A stretch of 64,000 nt of DNA. Source: Candidatus Omnitrophota bacterium. GTDB lineage: Bacteria > Omnitrophota > Gorgyraeia > Gygaellales > Profunditerraquicolaceae. Positions 21,134 through 62,310 of the stretch are shown piece after piece. The stretch spans positions 42,041-106,040 of the forward strand of contig JAKLGJ010000001.1 in the NCBI GenBank assembly GCA_022710715.1, read 5' to 3'. Below the pieces are notes generated by a model, which was not told where the DNA came from, did no database searches, and was given only the letters and a program-made list of their open reading frames with translations. Numbering within the stretch: the stretch's first letter is position 1; the number at the start of each line of letters is the position of its first letter. The translations under genes and the position numbers were made by a program.

Positions 21134-21134
21134 G

Positions 21135-21758: not shown

Positions 21759-21762
21759 GTCT

Positions 21763-23086: not shown

Positions 23087-23087
23087 T

Positions 23088-23118
23088 CTCGGGTGTTGTT
23101 TGCCTGAGATTTTTTTTT
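23088..23118 (+). terminator. Rho-independent terminator
   Basis: CUCGGGU-guuguuu-GCCUGAG stem-loop (7 bp with G-U pairs) followed by AUUUUUUUUU. Confidence 0.55.
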
Positions 23119-23128
23119 GACTGGCGCA

Positions 23129-23173
23129 AAAGTGCCAGGCACATAAGGGTTAAGAACATGAAAGTGCCAGGCA
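23129..23173 (+). repeat. Two direct copies of AAAGTGCCAGGCA (13 bp) spaced 32 bp start-to-start
   Basis: Exact copies at 23129-23141 and 23161-23173, between the terminator and the ATG at 23205. Confidence 0.45.
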
Positions 23174-23204
23174 GAAGCCAAAAAAACACCTAGAAAACGA
23201 GAAA

Positions 23205-24401: not shown

Positions 24402-24886
24402 GCGCAAGAACCGCTATTACCGCCGCGATTGCATGTATGACTTTATCATTCATCTGCAGCCAGCCTGTCCCGGCGCAGGAAGCGCCGCAGGCCGAGCAGC
24501 CGCAGGTGCAGGTTGCGATAAAACAGGTTTCCGGCGTTATCAGCGGTTTATCTTCCGGTTTCATCGCTATCGAGCTGGGCGGGGGCAGCGCTAAGGGCGC
24601 CCGTGAGTCGGCATTCAATCTGGACAAGAATGTCCGGATCGTGCATAAGAAAAGCCTGAAAGAACTTTCTGTCGGCGATACCGTTTCTCTGGATTACGAA
24701 GAAACGGTAACCAAGCAAGCGGACGGAAAGAAGATGCGAAAAACCCGCGTAATCGCGATTACATTCCTTAAAGCTGCGCCGCAAGGTTTGATTGCGCAGG
24801 AAGAGACCCAACCTCTTCAGAAAAGCGAGCCGAAAGCCGGCGAGCTTTCTCTGAAGGGAATTAAAGGGGAGGCCGGCAATGAATAA
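24398..24886 (+). CDS. Small secreted protein (signal peptide), unknown function
   Basis: ATGA overlap with the upstream gene. N-terminal MSARTAITAAIACMTLSFICSQPVPAQEA resembles a Sec signal peptide. Ends 8 nt inside the giant ORF start. Confidence 0.5.
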   Translation: MSARTAITAAIACMTLSFICSQPVPAQEAPQAEQPQVQVAIKQVSGVISGLSSGFIAIELGGGSAKGARESAFNLDKNVRIVHKKSLKELSVGDTVSLDYEETVTKQADGKKMRKTRVIAITFLKAAPQGLIAQEETQPLQKSEPKAGELSLKGIKGEAGNE

Positions 24887-42800: not shown

Positions 42801-45800
42801 ACGGACACGGCGGTTACCGATGTGTCCGACAACCCGTTCCGGGTGCGCGGCGCTTTGACCGTGACCGCTCCCAACGGCGGCGAAGCCTGGATCGTCGGTT
42901 CCAGTCACAGTATTACCTGGAACACCGGCGGTACCATCGCCAATGTCAAGGTCGAGTATTCTACCGACGCGGGGAGTTCCTGGACCATCATTGCCGCTTC
43001 CGCGCCGAATATCAACAGCTATGCCTGGACCGTTCCCGACGCCATTTCCAGCCAGTGCCGGGTCAGGGTATCGGATTTTACCGATTCCGACGCCAGTGAT
43101 ACTTCGAATGCCAACTTCAAGATCCGCGGCGATCTGGTCATTACCGCTCCCAACGGAGGAGAGAAATGGGCGGTCGGCACCACCAAGACCATCACCTGGA
43201 CCAGGACCGGCTCCATCTCCAACATGCGTCTGGAATATTCCGATAACGGCGGAACCACCTATGCTCCGATCGTGGCTTCCACTACCGGCAGCAACTATTC
43301 CTGGACCGTGCCTGACGCCATCACCATTCAGGCTCTGGTCAGGATCTATGATGTCAGCGACATGACGGTTACCGACGTTTCGGACGCGACGTTCAAGATC
43401 CAGGGTTCTTTCACCGTGACTTCTCCCAACGGCGGCGAAGCCTGGCAGGCGGCTACCGAGAACACGATCACCTGGACCTCCAACGGTTCGGTTAACTTCG
43501 TGCGCGTGGATTACTCCAAGGACAGCGGCGTTACCTGGAACGAGATCGTGGCGTCCACCGCTAACGACGGAGAGCAGACCTGGTTCATCCCGGTGGAGGC
43601 GGTTTCCGTGAATAACCGCATCCGCGTGGCCGACGCCGGAGACGTGGAAGCGTTCGATATGTCCAATAACGATTTCCGCGTGCGTTGTTCCTTCACCCTG
43701 ACCGCGCCTAACGGCGGCGAGAAGTGGAGGGTAGGACGAGCGTATAATATTGCCTGGACCAAGGTGGGTAACCCGGCGAACGTGAAGCTGGAATTCTCCC
43801 GCGATAACTTCGTCACCGATTTCAACACCATCGCGGCTGTGGCTTCCCCGGTCAGCCCGTATTCCTGGACTATCCCAGACTATATCCATCCCGGAGTGAA
43901 AGTGAGGATCTCCGACGCTGCCGATTACGGCGCCCGCGATGATTCGGATGCCGTGTTCGCTATTGTCGGCGACGTTACCGTGACCGCGCCCGTGGGCGGG
44001 GAACAGTGGATCGTCGATTCCCAGCAGACGATCACCTGGACCAGCGCCGGCTCGATCACCGACGTGAAGATCGAGTATTCCACTACCGGCGGCGCTTCCT
44101 ACAATCTGATCGAAGGCGTGCCGAACAGCCACTCGTATTTGTGGACCATCCCGGACACGATCAGCGCTTCCTGCAGGATACGCGTTTCCGATCTGACCTA
44201 TCCCGACGGCAACGGTGTATCCACCGCCAATTTCAAGATCAAAGCCGGGTTCACGTTGAGCGCGCCTAACGGCGGCGAGATCTGGACGGTCGGCGATGCG
44301 CATAACATCACCTGGACCAATATCGGTACGGTCAACAACGCGCGCCTGGATTATTCCACTGACGGCGGCACGACCTATCCCAGCGTGATCGCGGCATCCA
44401 CTGCCAACACCGGCACCTATGCCTGGACCGTTCCCGACGCTATTTCGACGCAGGTCAGGGTCAGGGTCGGCAGCGCTACGGACGTCGACGCGTATGACGT
44501 CTCCAACGCCAACTTCAAGATCCGCGGCGCTTTCCAGGTCACCGCTCCCAACGGCGGGGAACTCTGGCGGATCGCGCTGGATTATCCCATCCAGTGGAAT
44601 ACCATCGGCACCATAGCTAACGTGCGCATTCTCTATTCCACCGACGGCGGGACGACCTATCCGAATACCATCGTCAACTCGGTCGCCAACATCAACTCCT
44701 ACACCTGGCATTTACCTGACACCAGGACGCCTACAGCCAAAGTGCAGGTGGTCAATCCCGCGGATACCACGGTGCTCGATGAATCCGACGCCACGTTCCG
44801 TATTCAGGGATCATTGACCATGACCGCGCCCAACGGCGGAGAAGAGTGGATTTCCGGCGACGTGCACAATATCACCTGGAACTGGGGCGGCACGCTGCCT
44901 ACGGTGAAGCTGACCTATTCCATCAACAGCGGCGTCACCTATCCTTACACCATCAACGCGGCGGCGGCTAACGGCGCCGGCGGAGAAGGCGCGCATTCCT
45001 ACGCCTGGACCGTTCCGGATACCGTTGCCTCTACCTGCAGAGTGAAGATCGAGGATCCCGACGACTCGACCGTTGCCAGCGCTTCGGCGGCCGATTTCAA
45101 GATCCGCGGCGGCATCAGCATCACGTCGCCGGCAGGCGGGGAACGCTGGGTGACCAATGAAGTGCATAACATCACCTGGACGGATCGCGGCGAGATCCCC
45201 ACGGTCAAGATCCAGTATTCCAAGGATAACTTCGTTGCCGACGTGCATACCATAGCGGCTGCGGCGGAGAATACCAACAGCTACGCCTGGACCATTCCCG
45301 ATGACCGTTCCACCACGGTCAAGGTGCGCGTCACGGATACCCGCGACGATACTATCTCCGGCACTTCCGCCGGCAACGTGCATATCGACTACTACACCAT
45401 CACCTGGGTGCTCAAGGATCTGTTGACCAACGTCGGCCTGACCAACCTGGGCGTTACCGAAAAAGCCACCGGCACCGAGAACGTGCGCTGGTCGCAGACC
45501 GGATTGACTTCTCCGATCGTGACCCAGGCCCCGTACGGGTTCTGGACCACTACCTGGAGCGCTACCGGTTACGGCGACAAGGGCCAGAATTATACTGCGG
45601 ACAGCGATCAGAGCTTCGAGCTCTACATGGAAACGACCGCAGTGCATATCTGGCGCGCGGAAGCCCGTTTCAGCTGGAACGCGGATACCCGGGAACTCAA
45701 CGCTACTTCCTGGCTGGAAAGAGACGGTTCCATCGTTACCGGCGTCAAGAGCGTGCTTATCACCATCTACGATGAAGACGGCACGGTCATCACCACGATG

Positions 45801-47887: not shown

Positions 47888-47944
47888 AACTCCAACTTAT
47901 TGTTTGTTATAGAGTTAGCAAATAAACCCGAGGATATCTCGACG

Positions 47945-48178
47945 ATGTTCGAAATAGTCATGATCAGCCCGGAAGAAATCCTCTACCAGGGTAAAGCCGA
48001 GAGCGCGATCTTTCCCGGAGAGTCGGGAGTTTTTGAGACGCTTTCCTATCATCGTCCGGTGGTCAGCCGTCTGGTGGGGGGGAGCGTGTTCATCGATAAC
48101 CGGGAATATCCCATCCGGCGGGGATTAATGGGTTTCAGTAATAATAAAGCCACCGTCATCGTGGAGAGAAACGCATAA
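47945..48178 (+). CDS. atpC: F-type ATP synthase epsilon subunit, beta-sandwich domain only
   Basis: MFEIVMISPEEILYQGKAESAIFPGESGVFETLSYHRPVVSRLVGGSVFI matches the AtpC N-domain. About 77 aa, with no C-terminal helical hairpin. The ORF-track TTG start at 47900 is rejected. Confidence 0.7.
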   Translation: MFEIVMISPEEILYQGKAESAIFPGESGVFETLSYHRPVVSRLVGGSVFIDNREYPIRRGLMGFSNNKATVIVERNA

Positions 48179-48396
48179 TGGATAAAAACCTGGCATTGCT
48201 CCTGATCTTTCTGGCGTGTATCGCGGTGCCTTCCTGGGTTTTCGCGCAGTGCGGTAAGTCGAGTATCGCGGCCCTGGGAAGAAATCCTTCGGCGGCGCCG
48301 AAGGTCTTTACCGCGATGATCTTTGTGATGGTTTTCGCCGAAGCCGCGGCGATCATTTCCATGCTGGTGGTGTTTCAGCTGTTTTCAGGGCAATAA
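48178..48396 (+). CDS. atpE: F-type ATP synthase c subunit (atypical helix 1)
   Basis: 72 aa, two TM helices. ALGRNPSAAPKVFTAMIFVMVFAEAAAIISMLVVF resembles the RQPE loop and helix 2 with the conserved carboxylate (E). Helix 1 lacks the GxGxGxG motif. Confidence 0.65.
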   Translation: MDKNLALLLIFLACIAVPSWVFAQCGKSSIAALGRNPSAAPKVFTAMIFVMVFAEAAAIISMLVVFQLFSGQ

Positions 48397-48488
48397 CAAC
48401 GTGAAACTATACACCTTGCGCAAATTGCACCTAACGCTAATAAGGAATTGCGTTAGTGTGCCCTGTGGTCAAATTGCGCAAGTGTTTC

Positions 48489-48509
48489 GTCCCGCGGCTG
48501 CCGCGGGAC
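48489..48509 (+). promoter_or_regulatory. Perfect 9-bp stem / 3-nt loop hairpin immediately upstream of the atpF SD
   Basis: GTCCCGCGG-ctg-CCGCGGGAC, 3 nt before AAGGAG (48512-48517). Confidence 0.45.
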
Positions 48510-48524
48510 TCAAGGAGTTCTAAG

Positions 48525-49244
48525 ATGAATATTCTGATCCCGATGCTGGTGGTGCTGGTGGTGCTGTTCTTCATTATGATGCATTTTATGTCGAAAATGA
48601 TCAAAGGCGATGTGGTTTCTGCGACCGCGCATCTTGACCAGCAGGCCCAGGAATATGCCAAGAAAGACGCTGATCTTGCCAAAAAATTCGAAGAGCTCAA
48701 GCGTCAGGGCCAGGAGATCGTCGCCAATGCCCAGAAGGAAGCGCAGCAGAAGAGCGAAGAGCTTTTAAAGGAAGCGGCGCAGGAGAAGGAAAAGGTCATT
48801 GCCGCCGCCCACCTTCAGGCGGATGAAGTGATCAAGCAGGCGGACGCCGCCCGGCTGGCGCTTCTGGCGGACATGGACAAGAAAGTCGATGAACGCGCCG
48901 TGGTTAAGGCGGTAGAATTGCTTTCCCAATCCTTGCCGGAATCGGTGCGCAGCCACATGCATGAGCGCTGGGTCGCGGATCTGATCGGCACCAGTTTCGA
49001 ACAACTCGACCGTCTGAAGATCCCCGGGGATGTGCATATCGCGGAAGTGGTCAGCGCTTTCGCTTTAAGCCCCGAGCAGCGGGAAATGCTTGCTGCCAAA
49101 CTTTCCGAGAAGATCGGCAGACAGATGGAAGTGCAGGAAAAAGTCGATCCTGCGATCATCGCCGGATTGATCGTGACTATCGGCAGTCTCTTTTTCGACG
49201 GAAGCGTGCGGTTCAAGATCCAGGAGGTAGCGCGTGCCGAATAA
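48525..49244 (+). CDS. atpF: F-type ATP synthase b subunit fused to the delta (OSCP) C-terminal domain
   Basis: N-terminal TM helix MNILIPMLVVLVVLFFIMM, a long charged coiled-coil, and a C-terminus ...LSPEQREMLAAKLSEKIGRQMEVQEKVDPAIIAGLIVTIGSLFFDGSVRFKI resembling the delta C-domain. SD AAGGAG sits 7 nt before the ATG. Confidence 0.65.
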   Translation: MNILIPMLVVLVVLFFIMMHFMSKMIKGDVVSATAHLDQQAQEYAKKDADLAKKFEELKRQGQEIVANAQKEAQQKSEELLKEAAQEKEKVIAAAHLQADEVIKQADAARLALLADMDKKVDERAVVKAVELLSQSLPESVRSHMHERWVADLIGTSFEQLDRLKIPGDVHIAEVVSAFALSPEQREMLAAKLSEKIGRQMEVQEKVDPAIIAGLIVTIGSLFFDGSVRFKIQEVARAE

Positions 49245-50715
49245 CCAGACCGTCCCTGAAACCGGCCAGGCGGCTTTCCAGATCCATGAAGCCGGCGTGA
49301 TTGTAACGGTCCGCGAGTGTATTGCCAGGGTAGAAGGTTTGCCGTCGGTTATCAACGGTCAGATCGTGGAATTCGAACAGGGCGGCCGCGGTATCGTGAT
49401 GGGATTCAATGAAAAGGACGTGCAGGTCCTGGTGATCAGTTCGAAAGGACCGCTGCATGTCGGTGAACGGGTATTGAGCACCGGCGAATTCCTGCGCCTG
49501 CCGGTGGGCGACGGTTTTCTGGGGCGTATCGTCAATGCCCTGTGCGAGCCGGTGGATCAGGACGGGCCGATCCAGTCGAGCGATATGTACCCGGTCTTCG
49601 CCGAGGCGCCCGGGGTTATGGACCGCGCGCCCGTACGCGAAACGCTTGAGACCGGCACGCTGGTGCTCGATGCGGTCATCCCTATCGCCAAAGGCCAGAG
49701 GCAGCTGTTGATCGGAGATCGCCTTACCGGCAAATCCACCGTGGCTCTGGACGCGATCATCAACCAGAAGGGCCACGACGTCATCTGCATTTACTGCTGT
49801 ATCGGCAAACCCAATTCCAGCCTGCTGAAAGTCCTGAATCTCTTTAATGAAAAAAACGTCATGCCCTATACCATCGTGGTCAGCGCGGTGGCTTCCTGTT
49901 CCATGGGCGAACAGTATATCGCGCCCTACACCGCCTGCACGCTGGGCGAATATTTCATGAAAAACGGCAAGGACGTTCTTTTGATACACGACGATCTGAC
50001 CAAGCACGCCTGGGTGTACCGCCAGATATCGCTTTTGATGGAACGCGCCCCGGGCCGCGAAGCCTATCCCGGAGACATTTTCTATACCCATTCCCAGTTG
50101 ATGGAACGCGCGGGCTACTTCAAACCCGAACTCGGCGGCGGATCCATGACCTTCCTGCCTATCGTGGAGATCCTGCAGGGCGACGTTACCGGGTATGTTT
50201 CTTCCAATCTCATCTCCATGACCGACGGCCAGATATATTTCTCCACCGCGTTGTTCAACAAAGGCGTGCGCCCGGCTATCGATTTCGGTTTGTCCGTGTC
50301 GCGTATCGGGAACAAAGCGCAGTGGCCGGCGATGAAGGCGCTTTCCGGGCAGATGCGTCTGGAATACATCCAGTACCAGGAATTGCTGCAGATGACCCAG
50401 TTGCGCACTACCGGCCTTTCCCGGGAAGCGGAAGACCGGATGAAGCGCGGCCAGGCGATCACCCAGCTGCTCGTCCAGGATAAGAACAAACCCTTATCCA
50501 TGGAAGCCGAAGTCATGTACCTGTTCGCGTTGAGCATGGGCGTTCTGGATACCCTGGCGCCGGCTGATATCAAGAAATTCAAAGACAATTTCGTCGGGCT
50601 GGTGTCGCGCGAATTCCCCGACCTGTTTACGGAGATCCGCACCAGCATGATCCTTAACGATACCAGCATCGAAATGCTCTATGAGGCGTTGAACCACTAT
50701 TTTGCCCAGGGATAA
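49234..50715 (+). CDS. atpA: F-type ATP synthase alpha subunit
   Basis: GDRLTGKSTVALDAIINQK (P-loop) ... LLIHDDLTKHAWVYRQISLLMERAPGREAYPGDIFYTHSQLMERAG. Confidence 0.85.
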   Translation: MPNNQTVPETGQAAFQIHEAGVIVTVRECIARVEGLPSVINGQIVEFEQGGRGIVMGFNEKDVQVLVISSKGPLHVGERVLSTGEFLRLPVGDGFLGRIVNALCEPVDQDGPIQSSDMYPVFAEAPGVMDRAPVRETLETGTLVLDAVIPIAKGQRQLLIGDRLTGKSTVALDAIINQKGHDVICIYCCIGKPNSSLLKVLNLFNEKNVMPYTIVVSAVASCSMGEQYIAPYTACTLGEYFMKNGKDVLLIHDDLTKHAWVYRQISLLMERAPGREAYPGDIFYTHSQLMERAGYFKPELGGGSMTFLPIVEILQGDVTGYVSSNLISMTDGQIYFSTALFNKGVRPAIDFGLSVSRIGNKAQWPAMKALSGQMRLEYIQYQELLQMTQLRTTGLSREAEDRMKRGQAITQLLVQDKNKPLSMEAEVMYLFALSMGVLDTLAPADIKKFKDNFVGLVSREFPDLFTEIRTSMILNDTSIEMLYEALNHYFAQG

Positions 50716-51566
50716 ATGAGACTGCTTTCGGCGATCAAAAAGGATATGGATTTCAATCTCAACCTCTATAATCTCATCGAGGTGCTCAAAGAGATCGCCA
50801 TTGCCCAGTATAAGATCCTGGAAAAGAAGCTCAAGACTTTTGACGAAGTGTTCAACCATCTGGGGACCATTTTCGACCTGTTGCAGGTGGGAAATACCGG
50901 GCATCCGTTGCTGAATCCCGCCGGCCGCCAGGCGGGCGTTATCGCGCTTACTTCCGACGCCGGGCTTCTGGGTGGTTTGAACATGAGCGTGATGAGCCAG
51001 GCGATCAAGGAAGCGGACAAGGTCAAGGGCCGCTTGATCATTGTCGGCGAGAAAGGGCAGATGTACGCTCAAGAAACGGATCTGCCGTTCATCGTTTTTA
51101 AAGGCGTCAAAGACGAGACGCGGTTCGAGCAGGCGCAGCAGTTGCGCGATTACGTGCTGGCCGAGGAATTAAGCGGTAAATTAGGCCAGCTCAAGATCGT
51201 CTATCCGGTGGCGCTGTCTATCGTTTCGCAGCAGGTCAAGACGCTGCAGTTGTTCCCTTTTTCCACCGCGGAACATTTGCAGCGCAGGCCGGCGCCCGCG
51301 ATCGCCGCCAACGGCGTGATCCTGGAATCGGCGGTCGGCGATATCCTGGAATACTGGATACATCTGTTCCTGGCGCAGAAATTCTATCAGATCTTCGGGC
51401 TTTCCCGGCTGGCGGAGTTATCGGCCCGGTACAATCACCTGGAGACCAGCAAGGGCAAGATCGATAACCTGAACAAAGAGTTGAAGCTGCAGTATTTCCG
51501 GCAGCGCCATGAAATGATCGATAAGAATATCCGCGAGCTTTTCTGCGCGCGGCTGGCGTTTAAATA

Positions 51567-51567
<1 letters not shown>
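50716..51567 (+). CDS. atpG: F-type ATP synthase gamma subunit
   Basis: VIALTSDAGLLGGLN (ITSDRGLCGGxN motif) and a C-terminal helix. Confidence 0.8.
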
Positions 51568-53022
<1,455 letters not shown>

Positions 53023-53078: not shown

Positions 53079-53603
53079 ATGGCCGATAATCCGGAGGGCT
53101 CAATGGAAAAAGGCTCGAAACGCATAGGAGAAATCCTCATCGAGAAAGGGTTTATTACCGAAGCCCAGCTTAATGACGCGCTCCTGGACCAGAAAGTCAC
53201 CGATAAATTCCTGGGGATGATACTCAAAGAAAAGGGAGTGATCACCGACAAAGAGCTTATGCAGGCGCTGGCCGAACAGTTCGGCATCCAGCTGGTCGAT
53301 ATCAAGACGTATTATATCGATATGGAACTGGCCAGCAAGTTCACCACTTCGTTGATCATGGATCATAAATGCTTTCCGCTCAAAGAGGACGAGTATACCC
53401 TGACCATGGCTATCGTTAATCCCCTGAACGCGGTGGCCATCGCCAAGATCGAAGAGGAAGCCAGCCCGCGCCAGGTGGAGCTGGTCCTGGTCCTGGAATC
53501 GGATCTGCAGGAAATCCTGCAGCAGTATAAGCAGTACAGCGGCCAGCGTATCCAGCGGCTCTTAAAACGCAACAAGCCTGCAGAGGGGGGCCCGACTGCA
53601 TGA
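53079..53603 (+). CDS. Standalone T2SS/T4P GspE N-terminal (T2SSE_N) domain protein
   Basis: IGEILIEKGFITEAQLNDALLDQ...LGMILKEKGVITDKELMQALAEQFG, the T2SSE_N fold, with no ATPase domain. ATG at 53079 behind GGGAGGAAGAGGAG; the ORF-track start 53025 is less likely. Confidence 0.6.
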   Translation: MADNPEGSMEKGSKRIGEILIEKGFITEAQLNDALLDQKVTDKFLGMILKEKGVITDKELMQALAEQFGIQLVDIKTYYIDMELASKFTTSLIMDHKCFPLKEDEYTLTMAIVNPLNAVAIAKIEEEASPRQVELVLVLESDLQEILQQYKQYSGQRIQRLLKRNKPAEGGPTA

Positions 53604-55759
53604 ACAAAATCGACTCGGTTATTTTCCAGAGTCTGGCGGGTTCGAATCTTGTCCCGCGCGATTCTCTCGATCGCTATGTCAAAGAATCCGAGCAGACCGG
53701 ACAGACCCTGGTGTCGCTGCTGCTGCAGCATGCGTTGCTGACCGAACACGAATTCCTGGATATCCTTTCCGAAAAACTCAAGATTCCCCGCCTGGATCTG
53801 AAACATATACCGATCGATAAGAGCCTTATCGATAAAATCCCCTCCAAGATCGCGCATTATTACAAATTCTTCCCGGTCAAGGTTATCGACCGGACGCTGA
53901 CTCTCGCGGTCTCCCAGCCGCTGGATATCAAAACGCAGGATGAAATCCGCACCCAGCTGGGATTCGACGTGGAAATGGTGCTTTCCGCCAGCGCGGATAT
54001 TTCCGAACAGCAGCGTAAACATTACGGTTTTGCCGCCGATACCCTGGGCAAGATGAATTCTGCCACCGGGCAGGAACAGCAGTCGTCCGACCAGGACGCC
54101 GCCGGCCCGGAGAAAGTGGAAGATATCGAGAAGCTGGCGGAGGATGCTTCGGTCATCCAACTGGTCAACCAGCTCATTCTGGAGGCGTTCCGCAAGAGGG
54201 CTACCGATATCCACATCGAGCCGTATCGCGATGCCGTGAGCATGCGCTATCGCATCGACGGTATCCTCTATGACGCCAATGTCCCCGTGGATATCAGGAA
54301 CTACATTTCTGCGATCATCTCCCGCATCAAGATCATGTCGAATCTCAACATCGTCGAGCGGCGTCTACCCCAGGACGGACGCGCGGTGGTCAAGGTGGGA
54401 GAGCAGGTGCTGGATCTGCGCATTTCGACCATTCCCACTCCGTTCGGCGAGAGCGTGGTTATCCGTATCCTGCCGACAAAGATGCTTTTCAATCTGGAGA
54501 AACTGGGATTGAGCCAGCGCGATCTGTTGCTTTTCGAAGAGATGCTTTCCAAACCGCACGGGATCATTTTCGTTACCGGCCCGACGGGCAGCGGCAAGAC
54601 CACGACATTGTATGCCTGTTTAAGCAAGCTCAATACCAAGGACCGCAAGATCATCACCATCGAAGATCCCATTGAATACGAGATGTCCGGGATTACCCAG
54701 ATACAGGTGATGCCGGAGATCGGCCTTGATTTTTCCCGCGGTTTGCGCAGTATCCTGCGCCATGACCCGGACGTGATCATGGTCGGCGAGGTGCGCGACC
54801 TGGAGACCGCGGAAATCGCTATTCGCGTGGCATTGACCGGGCATCTGGTTTTTTCCACGCTGCATACCAACGATGCCGCCAGCGGCATTACCAGGCTGGT
54901 GGATATCGGTCTGGAACCCTATCTGGTATCTTCGAGCGTGGAATCGTTCATCGCGCAGCGGTTGATCCGTTTGATCTGTCCGGCCTGCAAGCAGGAAGAC
55001 AAGGAGTGTCCCAGGGAATTGAAAGAATTGATCGCCCGCGAATCGGGATTGAGTTCTTCCGCGGGGGTGCGGACATTCCGCGGCACCGGATGTCCCAACT
55101 GCAACGGGACCGGATTCCTGGGGAGAACCGCGATTTACGAGATCCTGATGGTTAATCAGACGATCAAAGATATGATCGTGAAAAAGTGTCCTTCCAACGT
55201 GATAAAGAATTCCGCGGTTTCGAGCGGCATGCGTACGCTGCGCCAGGACGGCTGGCAGAAGGTTCTGGCGGGATTGACTACGCCTGAAGAAGTAATGAAG
55301 GTCAGCCCGCTTGAAGAACAGGTCAATCCGGCAGCATCCGATCAGATGTACGTCCCGCAGATGGTCGCTGCCGGCACTCCGGCGGCAGAGGGGGAGGCGA
55401 ACAAGCGGATTTACAAGCGTCTGCAGAGCCGGGTCAATGTGCGTTATGTCATTTTCAAGACGCCGGATGATTTTACCCGGCGCGGTTTGAACGCCGAGAC
55501 ATTGAGCGCAACCAAGAATATCGGCGCCGGCGGGCTTCTGTTCATGGCCAAAGAACGGTTGACTGTAGGCGACATCCTGGAGATGAAGATCGAACTGCCT
55601 AACGGGCAGGGGCCGGTGGATTGTCTTTCGCGGGTCGTCCGGGTAGAGGAGATGGAGGGGCAGGATGTGTACGACATCGCCGTCTGTTTCCTGGATCTGA
55701 CCGGAGGTCAGCGCAACCGGCTTGAACATTACGTGGAAGCGCGCAGCGAGCAAGGATAA
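53600..55759 (+). CDS. gspE: Type II secretion / type IV pilus assembly ATPase (GspE/PilB family) with C-terminal PilZ domain
   Basis: N-terminal T2SSE_N domain; GPTGSGKTTTL (Walker A); FSTLHTND; the tetracysteine CPAC...CPNC; then an extra about 160 aa with RLQSRVNVR (RxxxR) and NIGAGG (a D/NxSxGG-like PilZ signature). Confidence 0.8.
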   Translation: MNKIDSVIFQSLAGSNLVPRDSLDRYVKESEQTGQTLVSLLLQHALLTEHEFLDILSEKLKIPRLDLKHIPIDKSLIDKIPSKIAHYYKFFPVKVIDRTLTLAVSQPLDIKTQDEIRTQLGFDVEMVLSASADISEQQRKHYGFAADTLGKMNSATGQEQQSSDQDAAGPEKVEDIEKLAEDASVIQLVNQLILEAFRKRATDIHIEPYRDAVSMRYRIDGILYDANVPVDIRNYISAIISRIKIMSNLNIVERRLPQDGRAVVKVGEQVLDLRISTIPTPFGESVVIRILPTKMLFNLEKLGLSQRDLLLFEEMLSKPHGIIFVTGPTGSGKTTTLYACLSKLNTKDRKIITIEDPIEYEMSGITQIQVMPEIGLDFSRGLRSILRHDPDVIMVGEVRDLETAEIAIRVALTGHLVFSTLHTNDAASGITRLVDIGLEPYLVSSSVESFIAQRLIRLICPACKQEDKECPRELKELIARESGLSSSAGVRTFRGTGCPNCNGTGFLGRTAIYEILMVNQTIKDMIVKKCPSNVIKNSAVSSGMRTLRQDGWQKVLAGLTTPEEVMKVSPLEEQVNPAASDQMYVPQMVAAGTPAAEGEANKRIYKRLQSRVNVRYVIFKTPDDFTRRGLNAETLSATKNIGAGGLLFMAKERLTVGDILEMKIELPNGQGPVDCLSRVVRVEEMEGQDVYDIAVCFLDLTGGQRNRLEHYVEARSEQG

Positions 55760-55764: not shown

Positions 55765-56988
55765 ATGCTATACCGATTTAAAGCCAAGAAGGGGCCGGGC
55801 AGTATCGTCGAATCCGAGCTGGAGGCTTTGTCCGAGCGCGAAGCGATCGATCGTATCAGCGCGATGGGGTATGTGCCCATCCATATAGAACTTGCCGAGC
55901 AGCCCGGCCAGGCGGCATCGGGTTCGGTGCAGGCGGCCAAGACTACCTTGGTGCGCGTCGGTTCGCGCGATCTGACGTTATTCACCCGTCAGCTCGCCAG
56001 TCTTTTGAAATCCGGGGTGCCTATCCTGCGGGCTTTGAGCATTATCGCCGAGCAGACCGGCAGCCTGCAGTTGCGCAGTATTCTCTACACCGTGCATCGG
56101 GCGGTCAAGGAAGGCGCTCCTTTTTCTTCGGTGCTCGCCCGGTATCCCGGAGTATTTTCCTCGTTGTACATCGCGATGATCCGCACCGGGGAAGACAGCG
56201 GCGCATTGCCGGAGGTGCTTTTCCGGATCGCCGAATACCGGACTAAACAGGAAGAGGCGATCAGGCGCTTCCGCATGGGGATGGTCTATCCGCTCCTGAT
56301 GGTTCTGGTCGGTATCGGTACCGTGGTCTTCATGCTGACCTATGTCATGCCCCGGCTGATGGGCGTGTATACCACGCTGGGCCGGCAATTACCCCTGCCT
56401 ACCCAGATCCTGATCGGCATAAGCGCTTTTTTACGCCAGTGGGGAGGATGGATCGTCGGGGTGCTGATAGTCGGGGCCGCGCTGGCAAAACAGCAGTCCC
56501 AGACCAAGCCCGGCAAGACGGCGATGAGCGCGTTCATTCTGCATCTTCCGGTGTTCGGCGCGCTGGTCCAGAAGGCCGAACTGGCGCGGTTCTCGCGCAC
56601 CCTGGAATTGCTCCTGCACAGCGGGCTGCCGATCCTCAAAGCAATCACCATTACCATCCCCGTGCTGGAAAATGAGATCATCAAGTCTCAATTGACCAGC
56701 AGTTATAAATCCCTGGAACAGGGCGGGTCTTTTTCCGCAAGTTTGAAAAATTCCCGCGTTATCCCGCCATTTATGAGCAATCTGATCAACGTGGGTGAGG
56801 AATCCGGAAAGATCGACGATTCGCTCAAGGAAGTAGCCGATGCCTATGAACGCGACACCGATGAAGCTCTGCAAATGCTTAACAGCCTGCTTGAACCGGT
56901 AATGATTATCGGTATGGGTGTGATCGTCGGGTTCATTGTCATGGCGATGCTTCTGCCGATTTTCGAGATGAATCTGATGGTTCAGTGA
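55765..56988 (+). CDS. gspF: GspF/PilC-family inner-membrane platform protein
   Basis: Two T2SSF repeats (LTLFTRQLASLLKSGVPILRAL... and ...LLHSGLPILKAIT) with 3 TM segments. Confidence 0.85.
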   Translation: MLYRFKAKKGPGSIVESELEALSEREAIDRISAMGYVPIHIELAEQPGQAASGSVQAAKTTLVRVGSRDLTLFTRQLASLLKSGVPILRALSIIAEQTGSLQLRSILYTVHRAVKEGAPFSSVLARYPGVFSSLYIAMIRTGEDSGALPEVLFRIAEYRTKQEEAIRRFRMGMVYPLLMVLVGIGTVVFMLTYVMPRLMGVYTTLGRQLPLPTQILIGISAFLRQWGGWIVGVLIVGAALAKQQSQTKPGKTAMSAFILHLPVFGALVQKAELARFSRTLELLLHSGLPILKAITITIPVLENEIIKSQLTSSYKSLEQGGSFSASLKNSRVIPPFMSNLINVGEESGKIDDSLKEVADAYERDTDEALQMLNSLLEPVMIIGMGVIVGFIVMAMLLPIFEMNLMVQ

Positions 56989-57001: not shown

Positions 57002-57865
57002 ATGCGGATCTTGAATCGGATAGCGATGCTGACGATATGTCTGGCGGCAGGCGTTTCTTTGTGCCGTGCCGAAGACTGGCAGGAAATCAAGGGAGAGCAT
57101 TTTATCGTTCGCTATCTTAAAGCAGACGCGTCCAACGCCGAAGGATTCGCTCAAGATGTGGCCGGCAAAGCCGAGACGTATTACCGGCGGATCGCCGAGG
57201 ATCTGGGGTATCCGCGTTATTCCGAATTCTGGACCTGGGATAACCGGGTGAAGATCTATCTGTATCCCGACCAGGCCAGTTATGTCAGATCCGGCAATCA
57301 TCCGCAGTGGTCTGCGGGTATGGCGGATTACGAGAAAAAACAGATTATCAGTTTTTCGGGGAGCACGCGTTTTAGCGAACATGTCCTTCCTCACGAGATC
57401 GCGCATTTGATTTTTCGCGATTTTGTCGGGTTTACCGGCGAGATCCCGCTCTGGCTCGATGAGGGGGTGGCGCAGTGGGAGGAAGAGTCGCTGCGGCCGG
57501 ATATCAAACGGGTAAGCAAGTTGATGTTCGAGAAGGATTCCCTGTTGACGCTGGACGATATGATGACGCTGGATGTGCGCACGATCAATCCGGGCAGCGT
57601 GTATCAGCGGCCGACGGTGACCCGCAGCGGGCAGAAAGCGGTGATCGTTCTGTCCGGTGACGCGCTGGTGAACCATTTTTACGTTGAAGCGTCTTCGCTG
57701 GTGGGGTTTTTTATCGAGCGTTTCGGTTCTCTCGAATTTGCCAAGTTCTGCCGGCAGCTGCGCGACGGCAATAGTTTCGAACAGGCGGTGCAGGCGGTGT
57801 ATTCCGGGCTGCGCAGTCTGGCGGATGTGGAAAAAGAATGGAAGCGTTATCTTGAAGCAGGTTAA
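57002..57865 (+). CDS. Secreted HExxH protein (Peptidase_MA-like putative zinc metallopeptidase)
   Basis: Signal peptide MRILNRIAMLTICLAAGVSLCRA; HEIAHLIF (HExxH) and a downstream LWLDEGVAQWEE (third Zn-ligand Glu region). Confidence 0.45.
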   Translation: MRILNRIAMLTICLAAGVSLCRAEDWQEIKGEHFIVRYLKADASNAEGFAQDVAGKAETYYRRIAEDLGYPRYSEFWTWDNRVKIYLYPDQASYVRSGNHPQWSAGMADYEKKQIISFSGSTRFSEHVLPHEIAHLIFRDFVGFTGEIPLWLDEGVAQWEEESLRPDIKRVSKLMFEKDSLLTLDDMMTLDVRTINPGSVYQRPTVTRSGQKAVIVLSGDALVNHFYVEASSLVGFFIERFGSLEFAKFCRQLRDGNSFEQAVQAVYSGLRSLADVEKEWKRYLEAG

Positions 57866-57883: not shown

Positions 57884-58288
57884 ATGAGAAAAGCATTTAC
57901 TCTGATTGAATTGATGCTGGTGGTGGTGATTATCGGCGCGCTGGTGGCAATGGTGATGCCGCGATTGACCGGCAGGGGAGAGCAGGCCCGCGGCACTGCG
58001 GCTAAGGCCGATATCGACGCGAATATCGCCACAGCGCTGAAACTCTATGAGCTCGATAACGGGGAATTTCCTTCGACCAGCGAAGGGTTGAGCGCTCTGG
58101 TGACGAAATCTTCCAGCGCCAATAACTGGAAGGGGCCGTATCTGGAAAAGGGCAAAGTCCCCCTTGATCCCTGGGGCAGGGAATACAAATACAAATCTCC
58201 CGGCGATCATCGCACGCAGGATTACGATCTGTATTCCCTGGGCAAAGACGGAGTGGAAAGCGCGGATGATATCAAGAACTGGGAATAA
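57884..58288 (+). CDS. gspG: Major pseudopilin GspG
   Basis: MRKAFTLIELMLVVVIIGAL prepilin cleavage/methylation motif; the GspG-typical body ...LYELDNGEFPS...PWGREYKY. Confidence 0.85.
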   Translation: MRKAFTLIELMLVVVIIGALVAMVMPRLTGRGEQARGTAAKADIDANIATALKLYELDNGEFPSTSEGLSALVTKSSSANNWKGPYLEKGKVPLDPWGREYKYKSPGDHRTQDYDLYSLGKDGVESADDIKNWE

Positions 58289-58691
58289 GAAAGGTTTTAC
58301 CCTCGTCGAGATCATGGTCGCCACGGCGGTTCTGTCTCTGGGGATAGTCGCCATCTATCAGGCGTTGTTCATTACCCTGGACGCGTTTAATTATTGCGCG
58401 AATTATCTCGAAGTGGTTTCTCAAGTCAACGAGCGGATCTGGCAAACGCAGGAAGAATTGCGGCGGTTCGGCCCCGAGGCGAAAATAACCACCGCCGGGA
58501 CGTTTCCGCTGGAAGCGAAACGGCTGGACTGGGAGCTGTCTTATGTGATCGTGGACATTGCCAGCGACCTGTATAAGATCGACCTGACCACCAGCTGGAA
58601 ATCGGGACGGAGGATCGCGCAGATTACCCGCACCGCCTACGCATTATCCAAGAATGAAGAATCCGAAGGATCGGAAGGGACCGATGAGTAG
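58266..58691 (+). CDS. Minor pseudopilin (GspI/GspH-like)
   Basis: Leader MISRTGNKKG followed by FTLVEIMVATAV; 141 aa. Overlaps the gspG 3' end by 23 nt. Confidence 0.6.
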   Translation: MISRTGNKKGFTLVEIMVATAVLSLGIVAIYQALFITLDAFNYCANYLEVVSQVNERIWQTQEELRRFGPEAKITTAGTFPLEAKRLDWELSYVIVDIASDLYKIDLTTSWKSGRRIAQITRTAYALSKNEESEGSEGTDE

Positions 58692-59277
58692 ATCCCGGGC
58701 CGGTTTTACCCTCATTGAGCTGCTGGTGGTGACGGTGATGCTGGGGATCATCTCCCTGGCTCTGTATTCCACGTTTTCCGCGGGCGCCACGATCTGGAAA
58801 CGCACGCAGGCTCTGGTCATCGAAGAAGATGTCAATCTCTTCCTCGAGCATTTTGCCCAGGATGTGAGCACCACCTTTTTATTCACCGGTATCGATTTTA
58901 TCGGCAAAAAGGACCGTCTGGAGTTTCCCATCCTGCTGCAGAGCCGCGATCTGCAGAAACGGACCGTAGGCAAAGTCGTCTATGTGTTCAATCCCGAGGC
59001 GATGACGGTCGGCCGGGCGCAACTCGATTATTCCGCGCTCTTCCGGACGGAGGAGCCGGTGTTCGCCCGCGCCCTGCCGCGGGTGATCCAGTGCGTTTTT
59101 TCCTTTTATATGATCGATCCCCAGACCAAAGAAACCTACTGGGCGGATGATTTTTCCGCAGAGAAAGGGATGTCCCTGCCCCTGGCAATACGCATAGAGC
59201 TGGAAGTGCATCACGGGGAGTCGGTCCAGCGGTTCGTCAGGACCGTTTCCATACCGGTGAGTCAGACTGATGACTAA
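58684..59277 (+). CDS. Minor pseudopilin (GspJ-like)
   Basis: MSRSRAGFTLIELLVVTVMLGI prepilin motif; about 197 aa. 8-nt overlap with the upstream gene. Confidence 0.6.
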   Translation: MSRSRAGFTLIELLVVTVMLGIISLALYSTFSAGATIWKRTQALVIEEDVNLFLEHFAQDVSTTFLFTGIDFIGKKDRLEFPILLQSRDLQKRTVGKVVYVFNPEAMTVGRAQLDYSALFRTEEPVFARALPRVIQCVFSFYMIDPQTKETYWADDFSAEKGMSLPLAIRIELEVHHGESVQRFVRTVSIPVSQTDD

Positions 59278-60268
59278 AAAAGCAAGTATCCTTTTGATCG
59301 CGTTGTGGACGCTGGCGACATTATCGGCGTTCGCGGTGATTTTGAGCAACCAGGTCAGGCAGAAGCTGGAACTGGTCCGCAGCCTGGAGGCGCGCAATAA
59401 ACTTCACTATATCGCGGAAGCCGGCGTTCTGCAGGCCAAGGCGGAGATCGTCAAGCTCAAAGACAAGCCGGCGCTTGCGCTGAAAGACGAGTGGAGCGTG
59501 AATGATATGCTCTTCAAGAACCGTGCGGTGGGTGAGGGTATTGTCAGCATTGTTTACGAGACCGTCGATGAGCAGGCGCAGCGGGTCGAACGGTACGGGT
59601 TGATCGATGAAGAACGCAAGATCAATATCAATAAAGCTTCACGCGAAGTGCTGGAGCGGTTGTTCCGGGCGGCACTCGGCGCGGACGACACGGAAGCGCA
59701 GAACCTGGCAGCCGCGATCATCGACTGGCGCGATAGCGACAGCGAGCTGACCGTTCCCCTGGGCAGCGCGGAGGATCCGTATTACCGGACCAGTTCCAGT
59801 TCGTATGAAGCCAAAGATGCCCCGTTCGAGATTGTAGAAGAATTGCTTCTGGTCAAGGGTTTTTCACAAAACATCTTTGATAAACTCAAAGATTATATTA
59901 CAATTTATGGTAGCGGCAAGGTGAATCTCAATACCGCTTCCCGGCCGGTGTTACTGGCAGTGGGACTGGATACCACGCTTACGGATCAGCTTGAACAGAT
60001 ACGCGGGGGTAAAGACGGTATTGAAGCCACGGCAGACGATTTTGTTTTTGAGAATGCCGCGGACCTGTCCAGTCAGATGAGTCAGGTATTTTCTTTGTCT
60101 CCCGCGCAGCTTACGTTGCTCAATAACGTAGCCGCGCAATCCCTGGTGGCTGTTTCCAAGCATTTCCGCGTTCACAGTGTCGCCCGTTTGCATAAAGGCC
60201 GGGGCAGCCGCGAGATTTCCTGTATAATCAACGTTAAAGGCGAAATACTGTCTTATCAGGAACTGTAA
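59270..60268 (+). CDS. gspK: GspK-like minor pseudopilin
   Basis: N-terminal TM; the ININKASREVLERL helix-hairpin-helix motif characteristic of GspK; about 330 aa. Confidence 0.65.
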   Translation: MTKKASILLIALWTLATLSAFAVILSNQVRQKLELVRSLEARNKLHYIAEAGVLQAKAEIVKLKDKPALALKDEWSVNDMLFKNRAVGEGIVSIVYETVDEQAQRVERYGLIDEERKININKASREVLERLFRAALGADDTEAQNLAAAIIDWRDSDSELTVPLGSAEDPYYRTSSSSYEAKDAPFEIVEELLLVKGFSQNIFDKLKDYITIYGSGKVNLNTASRPVLLAVGLDTTLTDQLEQIRGGKDGIEATADDFVFENAADLSSQMSQVFSLSPAQLTLLNNVAAQSLVAVSKHFRVHSVARLHKGRGSREISCIINVKGEILSYQEL

Positions 60269-60271: not shown

Positions 60272-61750
60272 ATGTGGAATTCTCTGATTCAACAGATGTT
60301 CGGTTCCGCTTCCCGCGACAGCGTGGCCATTGAAATCGGCACGACTGCCGTCAAACTGGCGTATGTGAAGGCCGCCGGTTCGAAAAAGGAATTAGCCGGG
60401 CTGCTTAGCCGTCCCGTGCAGGGGTTATCGGATGCGGACCTGGGAAAATTCATCCTCGACTTTATCGCTTCCTATAAGATCAAAAGTCCCGAACTCTTCC
60501 TGGTCGTTCCTTCGGCGGGGGTCATCACCAAGAATATCGAGGTTCCTTCCACCAATCCGCGGGAAATCAAGGAGATTATCAGTCTGCAAGCCGGCAGGCA
60601 TACGCCGTATTCCCGGGAAGAGGTGATCGTCGATTTCGTCAATCTGGGTACGCATAAGAAGAATTATACCAAGATCCTGATGGTTATCGTCACCACCAAG
60701 CAGGTCAAGAAACATCTGGAGATCATCGAGAAGAACGGTTTGCGGGTTCAGAAGGTGTTTTTTGCACCCGAAGCCATGGCCTGGGTATCGGTACGCGCCC
60801 TGCGTATGGATCCGGTCGATCCGTTCGGGTTCATCCATATTGATTCCGATAGCACCGATTTCATGGTCATGCATAAGGGCAGAATCCTGTTCCTGCGTTC
60901 GGTGCCGGTCGGTAAACAGCAGTTGACCGCGGATAAGGAGAAAGCGCAAGCCAAATTCACCGAGGAGATCAAAAAATCGCTGGAAGCGTACCAGGGTGAG
61001 GATATCGAGAAGACCCCGACAGCGCTCTATGTGGGGGGCGCGTCCGCAGGGCTGACGTATCTGGAATTGCTGCTTAATTCCACCTTGCATCTGCCGGTAA
61101 AACCGGTGGAGTATGCCCGTGGCGTCACCGCGGGCCGGCAGGCGGCGGAGTATCTGACGCAAGAGTCAACGTTCTCCTTTTTTGCCCCGGTCGCCGGCCT
61201 GTTGGCCAGGAAAGAGACGCGGGTGGACTTGATCCCGGAGGAGATCAAACTCAAGAAGATCCTTCAGCAGCGGGGCAGGGATCTGATCGCGATGGGATTT
61301 TTGTGCATGAGCATTTTTGTCCTGGTGATGTTTATCCTGACGGTTAAATGGTATTTCAAGAGCAGCTATCTGGAGACCCTCGATAAGAAATACCAGTCAC
61401 TGCATAAGGATGCGCAGGTCCTGGAGAATGATTTCAACAAGATCAGCCTGGTCAAGAATTATCAGTCCGGCCAGGGGTATCCCTTGAATGTCCTGGGGGA
61501 ACTGGTGGAGCAGGTTCCCATGGATCTGGAGATCAACGAGATCCGCTATGACAGTCAGGGAAAATTCTCCACTAAAGGCACCGCCGCTTCGATGTCCACG
61601 GTTTTTTCTTTTGTGGATAATCTGAATAAGTCGAAATATTTCAAGGAAGTTAAAACCAAGTATACCACCAAACGTAAAGAAGAAGGCAAGGATGTGGTTG
61701 ATTTCGAGATCACCAGCCTGTTGAATACCAAGGTGCAGGGGCAGCCATGA
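60272..61750 (+). CDS. GspL-like assembly protein (PilM actin-like domain plus TM plus PilN-like domain)
   Basis: N-terminal about 330 aa PilM-like (IGTTAVKLAYV...); the TM LIAMGFLCMSIFVLVMFILTV; then a periplasmic PilN/GspL-C-like tail. Confidence 0.65.
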   Translation: MWNSLIQQMFGSASRDSVAIEIGTTAVKLAYVKAAGSKKELAGLLSRPVQGLSDADLGKFILDFIASYKIKSPELFLVVPSAGVITKNIEVPSTNPREIKEIISLQAGRHTPYSREEVIVDFVNLGTHKKNYTKILMVIVTTKQVKKHLEIIEKNGLRVQKVFFAPEAMAWVSVRALRMDPVDPFGFIHIDSDSTDFMVMHKGRILFLRSVPVGKQQLTADKEKAQAKFTEEIKKSLEAYQGEDIEKTPTALYVGGASAGLTYLELLLNSTLHLPVKPVEYARGVTAGRQAAEYLTQESTFSFFAPVAGLLARKETRVDLIPEEIKLKKILQQRGRDLIAMGFLCMSIFVLVMFILTVKWYFKSSYLETLDKKYQSLHKDAQVLENDFNKISLVKNYQSGQGYPLNVLGELVEQVPMDLEINEIRYDSQGKFSTKGTAASMSTVFSFVDNLNKSKYFKEVKTKYTTKRKEEGKDVVDFEITSLLNTKVQGQP

Positions 61751-62310
61751 TCAAGCTGAACGCGTTGATAGGATTCGTCAAGAAGCTTTCCAAACGGGAA
61801 CGGATCGTTTTTTACTCGGCGGTTGCCGTTGTTTCTTTGATGCTGCTCGATCGGCTGGTGGTCGGACCGGTTTTCGGGAAATTGAAGTCGCTGGATGAAC
61901 AGATTGCTGCCACGACCGAAGGAATCAACCGGGATGTGCGGATCCTGGCGCAGAAGGACCGGATCGCCCTTCAGTTGACCGCCTATAAAGGTATGCTGGT
62001 GCCGGAAGGCACCAAGGAAGAGGAATTCTCGGATTTAATGAAGGAGGTGGAGACCCTGGCGAATAAGAACGGGGTATCGCTTCTGGATATGAAACCGGGC
62101 GATATCCGGGTTCTGGAAGGGGCGAAGCAATACCTGGTCAGCTTGAACTGCGAAGCGCCGTTCAACAAGCTGGTGGATTTCCTTTACGGCATTGAATCGT
62201 CCAAAAAGATGCTTAAGACCGACAGGTTCCAGCTGTCTTTGAAGAGTAAACAGGACCCCAGCATTAAATGCAGCATAACTATCGTGAAAATAATTTTGCC
62301 AAATTCGTAA
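61747..62310 (+). CDS. GspM/PilO-like protein
   Basis: ATGA overlap; a single N-terminal TM (IVFYSAVAVVSLMLL) and an about 150-aa periplasmic domain. Position after the GspL-like gene. Confidence 0.5.
   Translation: MIKLNALIGFVKKLSKRERIVFYSAVAVVSLMLLDRLVVGPVFGKLKSLDEQIAATTEGINRDVRILAQKDRIALQLTAYKGMLVPEGTKEEEFSDLMKEVETLANKNGVSLLDMKPGDIRVLEGAKQYLVSLNCEAPFNKLVDFLYGIESSKKMLKTDRFQLSLKSKQDPSIKCSITIVKIILPNS

Follow-up and report, generated by a model that had tools for sequence, protein, structure and literature searches.

We analysed a 64,000-nucleotide stretch of DNA from a Candidatus Omnitrophota bacterium (the window), in which a gene on the forward strand, at positions 53600..55759, encodes a GspE/PilB-family ATPase that continues into a C-terminal PilZ domain. 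Omnitrophota are uncultured bacteria that possess giant surface proteins and are suspected of living as predators or in dependence on a host. Control of the motors of type II secretion systems (T2SS) and type IV pili (T4P) by c-di-GMP (cyclic dimeric guanosine monophosphate) is known to proceed via N-terminal MshEN domains or via free PilZ/FimX cofactors. At this locus, a PilZ domain is fused to the motor itself, the MshEN-fold domain at the N-terminus of the same motor appears to be ligand-blind, and an apparently intact MshEN copy is encoded by a separate gene directly upstream. Genes of a T2SS-like machine follow downstream.

The motor ATPase

The protein of 719 amino acids (aa) is encoded in one continuous frame without a stop. 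Pfam assigns its residues 61-145 to MshEN (62.4 bits) and residues 180-566 to T2SSE (PF00437, 431.3 bits). The N-terminal MshEN-fold domain (53600..54034, +) is made up of the ND0 helices (residues 1-60) and ND1 (residues 61-145), and the T2SSE core (54137..55297, +) of N2 and the C-terminal domain (CTD). The Walker A motif GPTGSGKT (54578..54601, +), the Walker B/catalytic glutamate box and the His box (DPDVIMVGEVRD, TGHLVFSTLHTNDA), and the cysteines C460, C463, C498 and C501 of the tetracysteine, zinc-binding region CPAC...CPNC (54977..55102, +) are invariant in an alignment of 59 orthologous sequences, and the motor is predicted from these motifs to be catalytically intact.

The protein stays below the cut-offs of both relevant equivalog models, with 585.7 bits for GspE (TIGR02533, cut-off 630.25) and 570.3 bits for PilB (TIGR02538, cut-off 675.65). 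By these scores, it is a member of the superfamily that is placed between GspE and PilB and is assignable to neither equivalog. The nearest solved relatives of the core are Geobacter PilB (5zfr/5tsg), Myxococcus PilB (3jc8) and Vibrio GspE (4ksr); Geobacter PilB 5zfr yields 451 bits versus 387 bits for GspE 4ksr, the latter across a shorter span. The identical 719-aa protein is present on 13 public contigs from at least four samples (JGI, ENA, Logan).

The PilZ tail

Searched with the full protein, PF07238 matches residues 606-713 with 45.1 bits (E 1.3e-11), twice its gathering score of 22.5, and the last 179 residues by themselves reach 48.3 bits. On the combined evidence of Pfam, an AlphaFold2 model and Foldseek comparisons, the PilZ domain spans residues 601-715 (55400..55744, +). 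A sequence-profile search of the PDB with the tail gave only a marginal match, to MotI/YpfA (E 0.003), so that a comparison of folds was needed. The AlphaFold2 model of the tail, which was built from 30 diverse orthologues and has a mean predicted local distance difference test score (pLDDT) of 75, consists of a flexible N-terminal loop, six beta-strands (16-22, 37-44, 48-53, 62-68, 76-88 and 93-102, in the numbering of the tail model) and a C-terminal helix (105-121). Its best Foldseek match in the PDB is MotI/DgrA (5vx6), with a template modelling (TM) score of 0.75 and a probability of 1.00. The other top matches, also with a probability of 1.00, are BcsA (4p00), PA PilZ (4xrn), Alg44 (4rt0), PP4397 (3kyf) and YcgR (5y6g); TM scores to 5vx6, 4xrn, 4rt0, 3kyf and 5y6g range from 0.6 to 0.75. 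All of these top matches are canonical c-di-GMP-binding PilZ domains, and the non-binding PilZ of Xanthomonas (7lkm chain C) ranks 50th with an E-value of 0.11. As modelled, the likeness of the tail to canonical PilZ is far beyond chance.

The ligand motifs were counted in an alignment of the 120 best homologues, which are 61-69% identical to the window protein, 700-737 aa long, and in all cases combine PF05157, PF00437 and PF07238. Motif 1, of the RRxxxR type, reads K602-R603-I-Y-K-R607 in the window protein (55403..55420, +) and [K/R]602-R603-x-Y605-x-R607 in the family, with R603 conserved in 120/120 and R607 in 119/120 homologues. Motif 2 takes the family form N/D640-I-S642-A-G-G645, in which N/D640 and G645 are kept throughout (120/120 each) and Ser642 in 117/120. 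In the window protein, it is N640-I-G642-A-G-G (55517..55534, +), with Gly in place of the Ser of [D/N]hSxxG, the canonical motif whose h is a conserved hydrophobic residue, as described by Galperin and Chou (10.1101/814665). The window protein thus departs from the strict pattern at this one position, with its Asn, hydrophobic residue and Gly retained. Gly642 is unique to it among the 120 homologues. In the larger set of non-redundant fused tails, Ser was found in 160/164 and NIGAGG in 3/164, namely the window protein and two distantly related loci (L010 and L041); among wider PilZ relatives, Gly occupies the Ser position in 7/133 motif instances. Since the identical protein was recovered from 13 contigs, Gly642 is a real allele and not an assembly error. 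It may weaken the PilZ input in the window species.

These results bear on a first-pass annotation made from the DNA letters and their translations, which had proposed that a GspE/PilB ATPase runs into a C-terminal PilZ domain. The fusion holds on both the Pfam score and the fold match; a PF07238 search had been suggested as the check, with the lack of any PilZ profile hit as part of the grounds for giving up the idea, and the hit lies well above the gathering score. The motifs were misplaced in that annotation. Its RxxxR, read as RLQSR, is off register: the first Arg of that segment is R607, and the second, R611, is found in just 25 of the 120 homologues, too few for RLQSR to be the conserved RxxxR. 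Its N-x-G-x-GG box, taken as the PilZ signature, is N-I-S-A-G-G in the family. The extension itself is real, and is somewhat shorter than the approximately 160 aa first given: it amounts to approximately 150 aa (residues 570-719), of which some 30-40 aa are a disordered linker.

This linker (residues 570-600; 55307..55399, +), delimited by AlphaFold2 pLDDT and the alignment, is variable, rich in Pro, Ala and acidic residues, and predicted to be disordered; its length and sequence are free to vary among the 120 homologues. In the AlphaFold2 model of the full-length protein, the N1, N2-CTD and PilZ modules are folded, and disordered stretches lie at 154-180 and 570-609. The pLDDT is approximately 30 for residues 570-609, which take in the RxxxR loop, and we take an RxxxR inside a disordered segment to be the usual state of an unliganded PilZ. 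The predicted TM score (pTM) of this model is 0.38; therefore, no fixed inter-domain geometry is predicted, and the model says nothing reliable on where PilZ docks.

Conservation of the fusion across Omnitrophota

A scan of species-representative genomes with a profile of the PilZ tail gave at least 120 confirmed loci; the sequences of 80 of them were retrieved. The fusion is carried by at least 120 species-level genomes, nearly all labelled Omnitrophota. A few carriers are labelled Planctomycetales, Deltaproteobacteria, Patescibacteria or Margulisiibacteriota, with identical gene order, and from this shared order we infer that the deviating names are submitter labels on Omnitrophota bins. In all 69 loci with a complete gene, the tail is fused to an ATPase with Walker motifs, in a protein of approximately 700-760 aa. 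The mean column identity is 64% in the tail versus 66% in the whole protein. The fusion is kept under purifying selection across the phylum, and lineages that carry an extra, separate PilZ gene still keep the fused tail.

One sub-lineage has such an extra gene, for a 161-aa protein, between the fused gene and gspF (L077 2326..2811, L078 4659..5144, and also L080). The 161-aa protein joins a 45-residue segment that resembles the N-terminus of GspF (27% identity, E 3e-5) to a second canonical PilZ domain. A search of a library of representative proteins with the tail profile returned 4525 matches, 438 of them at E<=1e-10, among which further T2SSE-PilZ clusters were confirmed; the top of this list consists mostly of gene fragments and small PilZ proteins, without taxonomy, and its first entry (P0121) is of the same type as the 161-aa protein. 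The same PilZ subfamily appeared in other architectures, including three PilZ domains together with Hsp70 in a 939-aa protein labelled Deltaproteobacteria (P0224) and a GAF-HD_5-PilZ protein of 414 aa, in which HD_5 is HD-GYP-like, labelled Hydrogenedentota (P0261). Another match, a 3205-aa protein with ten UCH (ubiquitin C-terminal hydrolase) repeats (P0206; E 5.7e-21 to positions 59-107 of the tail profile), has no Pfam PilZ hit and is probably spurious and driven by the repeats.

A degenerate MshEN on the motor and an intact MshEN upstream

The N-terminus of the ATPase scores 17.6 bits against NF053729, the NCBIfam model of the MshE-type c-di-GMP motif, which has a cut-off of 38, and the motif was detected in none of 59 orthologous ATPase N-termini at E<=1e-8. 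The relaxed 24-residue pattern of Wang et al. (PMC5013675) fits the ATPase N-terminus in one of approximately 70 loci. Where the motif calls for Arg, Gly and Gln, the domain has Ile/Leu, Ser/Tyr/Ala and Ala. By its sequence, the N-domain of the motor is thus predicted to be ligand-blind, and, with the MshE motif missing there, the PilZ tail is the sole recognisable c-di-GMP site on the motor polypeptide itself.

The gene directly upstream encodes a stand-alone MshEN protein (53079..53603, +; Pfam MshEN 59.7 bits) of 174 aa as publicly called; its open frame extends back to a GTG at 53025, which would give 192 aa. The stop codon of this gene overlaps the ATPase start codon as ATGA, and the two genes are translationally coupled. 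The protein scores 62.6 bits against NF053729, with model positions 1-53 covered in full, and combines the 53-residue motif with an MshEN_C subdomain, as a receptor domain of this type does. The tandem motif, RIGEILIEKGFITEAQLNDALLDQ-KVTDK-FLGMILKEKGVITDKELMQALAEQ, lies at 53121..53279 (+) in the translation, and its signature residues are nearly invariant among 51 orthologues and the window protein (G35 50/52, Q56 50/52, G64 51/52, Q85 50/52). In the PDB, the best sequence match is to Thermus PilF, whose GSPII domains bind c-di-GMP, and MshE-N (5htl) is a further relative. The stand-alone protein is collinear with the first 142 residues of the ATPase (28% identity, E 2e-12), which identifies the two as paralogues, one of which keeps the ligand site. 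The gene lies between atpB and the ATPase gene in 45 of 58 related loci; it is missing from the other 13, and the MshEN protein is therefore not an obligatory partner.

The first-pass annotation had overlooked both the MshEN-fold domain of the ATPase and this separate gene, and had described the PilZ fusion as an alternative to MshEN wiring. For the motor polypeptide this is borne out, as its own N-domain fails the c-di-GMP motif model; for the locus as a whole, PilZ does not plainly take the place of MshEN, as an intact MshEN gene adjoins upstream.

The operon and the type of machine

The fused gene is part of a fixed order, atpA-atpG-atpB-[MshEN]-gspE~pilZ-gspF-Peptidase_MA-gspG-pseudopilin-gspJ-gspK-pilM/pilN fusion-gspM_b. 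Leaving the MshEN gene aside, atpB is directly upstream in 58/69 loci, GspF is downstream in 56/59, and the peptidase is present in 44/55. In the window, all on the forward strand, the ATPase gene is followed by genes for a GspF/PilC platform protein (55765..56988; two Pfam T2SSF matches, 198.7 bits), a Peptidase_MA_2 zinc metalloprotease (57002..57865), a GspG-type major pseudopilin (57884..58288; T2SSG 113.6 bits and N_methyl), a minor pseudopilin with an N-methyl motif (58266..58691), a GspJ-like minor pseudopilin (58684..59277; N_methyl and a sub-threshold T2SSJ match of 24.9 bits, cut-off 28), a GspK-like minor pseudopilin (59270..60268; T2SSK_1st 66.3 bits), a 492-aa PilM-PilN fusion that is the GspL analogue (60272..61750; PilM_2 and PilN), and a GspM (type b)-like protein (61747..62310; T2SSM_b 29.7 bits). 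The succession of the PilM-PilN fusion and T2SSM_b means that platform parts of T4P type and T2SS type are mixed in one operon. By analogy with the GspE-GspL and PilB-PilM pairs, the N-terminus of the ATPase probably docks on the PilM-PilN fusion. The metalloprotease (HEIAH), encoded between gspF and gspG, has a signal peptide and is secreted or periplasmic; the machine may export it as a substrate or use it as a processing factor.

The core set of a type II system, i.e., E, F, G, J/K-like minor pseudopilins and an L/M-like platform, is thus present in one operon, and we read the machine as a type II secretion-like (pseudopilus) system that is conserved across Candidatus Omnitrophota. Genes for the secretin GspD, GspC, the prepilin peptidase GspO and PilT were not found among the open reading frames (ORFs) of the window and its 10-kb extensions on each side; GspD, GspC and GspO may be encoded elsewhere in the genome.

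It should be noted that the machine might instead be a T4P, driven by a PilB and serving adhesion, motility or prey contact, with PilZ gating pilus extension. The closest solved homologues of the ATPase are PilB proteins (Geobacter 5zfr and Myxococcus 3jc8, ahead of GspE 4ksr), the operon includes the PilM-PilN fusion, the window has no genes for the secretin, GspC or GspO, and the ATPase falls short of the GspE equivalog cut-off. However, it falls even further short of the PilB cut-off, the major pilin is clearly of the GspG type and is followed by GspJ-like, GspK and GspM_b proteins, and the locus has no PilT retraction ATPase. We therefore regard a T4P as unlikely, with an appreciable chance of being right. 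If the machine were a T4P, its output would change and the wiring would be the same.

Directly upstream of the T2SS-like operon lies an operon for an F-type ATP synthase (47900..53022, +) with an unusual gene order: epsilon (92 aa, limited to the N-domain), c, a b/delta-like fusion in which an OSCP domain stands behind an N-terminal membrane segment, alpha, gamma and beta. No a-subunit gene was found within this operon. In a consensus scan for promoters and terminators, which is weak evidence, the junction of the ATP synthase genes with the MshEN gene showed no convincing signal; such a junction is compatible with co-transcription of the atp and gsp genes.

A proposed c-di-GMP switch

The domain identity of the motor and of its PilZ tail is near certain. 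The PilZ family is likely to bind c-di-GMP; for the Gly642 allele of the window, binding is only slightly more probable than not. Taken together, we consider it fairly probable that a T2SS-like motor is gated here by c-di-GMP via a tethered PilZ domain, with a second receptor acting in trans. In such a mechanism, the tether that bears RxxxR would be flexible in the ligand-free state. Once bound between the loop that bears RxxxR and the strand that bears [D/N]hSxxG, c-di-GMP would order and shorten the tether, by analogy with BcsA, YcgR and MotI. The barrel would then dock on the motor or a partner, i.e., on the non-binding MshEN-fold N-domain of the motor, on GspF, or on the PilM-PilN/GspL-like protein, and docking would switch pseudopilus assembly, hence secretion or attachment, on or off. 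Among these surfaces, ND0/ND1 of the motor is an attractive candidate because the free PilZ of Xanthomonas binds that domain of a motif-less PilB (PMC8389850). A second input would come from the stand-alone MshEN protein in trans, probably with higher affinity because MshEN binds approximately 10-fold tighter than PilZ (PMC5013675). As to the sign of the effect, activation at high c-di-GMP, as for MshE, is a guess that we hold somewhat more likely than inhibition. The most specific form of the proposal, in which a high-affinity MshEN in trans is combined with a lower-affinity PilZ in cis that docks ligand-dependently on the blind MshEN-fold domain of the motor, with the whole unit co-transcribed with the F1Fo ATP synthase, is rather unlikely to be correct in all its parts.

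Several observations weigh against this proposal. Searches for c-di-GMP turnover genes, made with motif regular expressions on all ORFs of the window, with Pfam on both halves of a 7609-aa ORF, and in the annotated 10-kb extensions on each side, found no GGDEF, EAL or HD-GYP genes in approximately 84 kb, i.e., approximately 5% of the 1.62-Mb contig Ga0116241_10000002. The same expressions, applied to approximately 1 Mb of flanks of the 80 related loci, gave no GGDEF or EAL genes; HD...GYP matches by expression only were returned in two of these loci (L021 and L057) and are unverified candidates. The stand-alone MshEN gene is missing from 13/58 loci. The window protein is without the motif Ser, and an NIGAGG barrel may bind c-di-GMP weakly or fail to bind it. 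The full-length AlphaFold2 model has no confident docking geometry for PilZ. For every member of the family, we infer both c-di-GMP binding and its effect on activity, and we can only guess at the docking surface and at the sign of regulation. With approximately 5% of the contig covered, the turnover-gene negative is weak evidence either way. GGDEF domains have been reported in giant proteins of Omnitrophota, and small pilZ genes beside giant genes (10.1101/2023.11.21.568195). That the motifs of two independent c-di-GMP receptors are kept almost without change is an indirect argument for production of the ligand in these organisms.

An alternative to ligand gating is that the PilZ tail, at least in the window species, serves as a ligand-independent protein-protein adaptor, i.e., a constitutive tether to a partner. 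The NIGAGG of the window protein in place of NISAGG would fit such a role, as would the lack of any turnover-gene hit nearby, and in Xanthomonas the binding of PilZ to PilB without c-di-GMP is established, with a PilB N-domain that is motif-less too (PMC8389850). Conversely, the near-invariance of RxxxR and [D/N]hSxxG in the family is hard to explain without a ligand, and the fold neighbours of the tail are ligand-binding PilZ domains, with the non-binding Xanthomonas protein far down the list. Gly recurs at low frequency in this PilZ clade, in 3/164 fused tails and 7/133 wider motif instances, which points to a tolerated variant and not to decay; in the window protein, the remaining motif residues are intact. 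We give the adaptor a small chance of being the correct explanation.

It is also conceivable that c-di-GMP takes effect through the stand-alone MshEN, which would work in trans on either the motor or PilM-PilN, and that PilZ is secondary, of lower affinity, or vestigial. The tandem motif of the MshEN protein is near-perfect, its gene is translationally coupled to that of the ATPase, the affinity difference between the two domain types (PMC5013675) is in its favour, and all three Ser-to-Gly lineages (the window, L010 and L041) keep the MshEN gene. However, the 13 loci without an MshEN gene retain an intact PilZ tail, and the tail is conserved like the ATPase core and is therefore not vestigial. 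Dominance of the MshEN input thus appears distinctly unlikely, and both inputs can coexist with gating through the tethered PilZ. Finally, the idea that an ATPase gene and a separate pilZ gene were joined by mistake in assembly or gene calling has no support, although in a few lineages the ATPase gene is followed by a further, separate PilZ gene, and it is practically impossible, being excluded by the continuous frame, the 13 identical contigs, 120/120 best homologues and 69 complete genes.

Comparison with known systems

Regulation of this ATPase family by c-di-GMP is already known, through MshEN (Roelofs 2015, PMC4624772; Wang 2016, PMC5013675), and so is the fusion of PilZ to diverse outputs. 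MshE and PA14_29490 share with the Omnitrophota system the ATPase family, the N-domain fold and the reading of c-di-GMP by the motor or an operon partner; they carry their own 53-residue motif on the motor, whereas here PilZ is on the motor and the intact motif is on a separate 174-aa protein. The PilB-PilZ(-FimX) systems of Xanthomonas and Pseudomonas (Llontop 2021, PMC8389850) likewise pair a PilZ fold with a PilB-type motor that has a motif-less ND0/ND1, and the Omnitrophota fusion is a covalent counterpart of the non-covalent Xanthomonas pairing. In contrast to the canonical domain fused in cis here, the Xanthomonas PilZ is divergent, non-binding, devoid of RxxxR and acts in trans, and c-di-GMP is sensed there by FimX; no FimX-like, GGDEF or EAL gene was found at the Omnitrophota window locus.

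BcsA and Alg44, like the protein described here, carry a canonical PilZ in cis with a catalytic or export component, and RxxxR lies on the linker that enters the barrel. The output there is a glycosyltransferase or a membrane-fusion protein and the contact a short gating loop, whereas in Omnitrophota the output is a hexameric secretion ATPase and the connection a long disordered tether. Thermus thermophilus PilF has three GSPII/MshEN domains, of which two bind c-di-GMP, and small deviations in the motif abolish binding (PMC12002112). The loss of binding in a deviating MshEN-fold copy and its retention in neighbouring copies have their parallel at our locus; in PilF, however, all copies are on one polypeptide without PilZ, whereas here PilZ is added and a gene of its own encodes the copy predicted to be competent for binding. 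YcgR and MotI (DgrA), the latter being the closest structure (5vx6), are also cases of a c-di-GMP-bound PilZ that acts on a rotary or reciprocating nanomachine, but they have two domains, are not fused to their target, and work on the stator or rotor of the flagellum and not on a pseudopilus ATPase.

A T2SSE-PilZ fusion is described neither in the PilZ surveys (10.1101/814665, 10.1101/2020.02.11.943704) nor in the MshEN paper (PMC5013675), a review of PilB cofactors (PMC11656802), PMC8389850 or 10.1101/2023.11.21.568195. A targeted search of full-text literature, which had subscription literature and InterPro architecture tables outside its scope, found no description either. The combination of a blind MshEN-fold domain, T2SSE and PilZ in one chain with a split-off MshEN receptor is apparently an undescribed arrangement. 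The fusion is visible to routine Pfam annotation, and the proteins are named just "ATPase, T2SS/T4P/T4SS family".

With a canonical PilZ and a ligand-blind MshEN on a single polypeptide, and a competent paralogue on a separate one, the locus offers a compact system for biochemistry and cryo-electron microscopy of how a ligand is coupled to a hexamer. It further points to c-di-GMP signalling as central, across the whole phylum, to the machinery with which Omnitrophota secrete or attach. If true, the two-receptor logic would couple secretion or attachment by ultra-small, possibly predatory or epibiotic bacteria to a second messenger and to energy supply.

Other features of the window

A giant ORF of 7609 aa (24879..47708, +) precedes the ATP synthase operon. 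Its only Pfam matches are Kre9_KNH Ig-like and Reelin_subrepeat-B repeats, with no GGDEF match. The ORF fits the giant genes reported for Omnitrophota, in whose neighbourhood T2SS-like loci and pilZ genes are said to occur (10.1101/2023.11.21.568195). Positions 1..20000 of the window, together with 1..10000 of the adjoining L086, hold a large polysaccharide cluster with many GT2/GT4 glycosyltransferases and methyltransferases; its Poly_export, GNVR/tyrosine-kinase-like, Wzy_C and ABC transporter genes lie just upstream of the window, and neither PilZ nor GGDEF genes are part of it. Between this cluster and the giant gene, the stretch 20001..24401 has a guanine-plus-cytosine content of 0.47-0.51 versus approximately 0.57 elsewhere and may be an acquired segment; a gene for a 398-aa IS200-like Y1_Tnp protein (23205..24401) closes it, just upstream of the giant gene.

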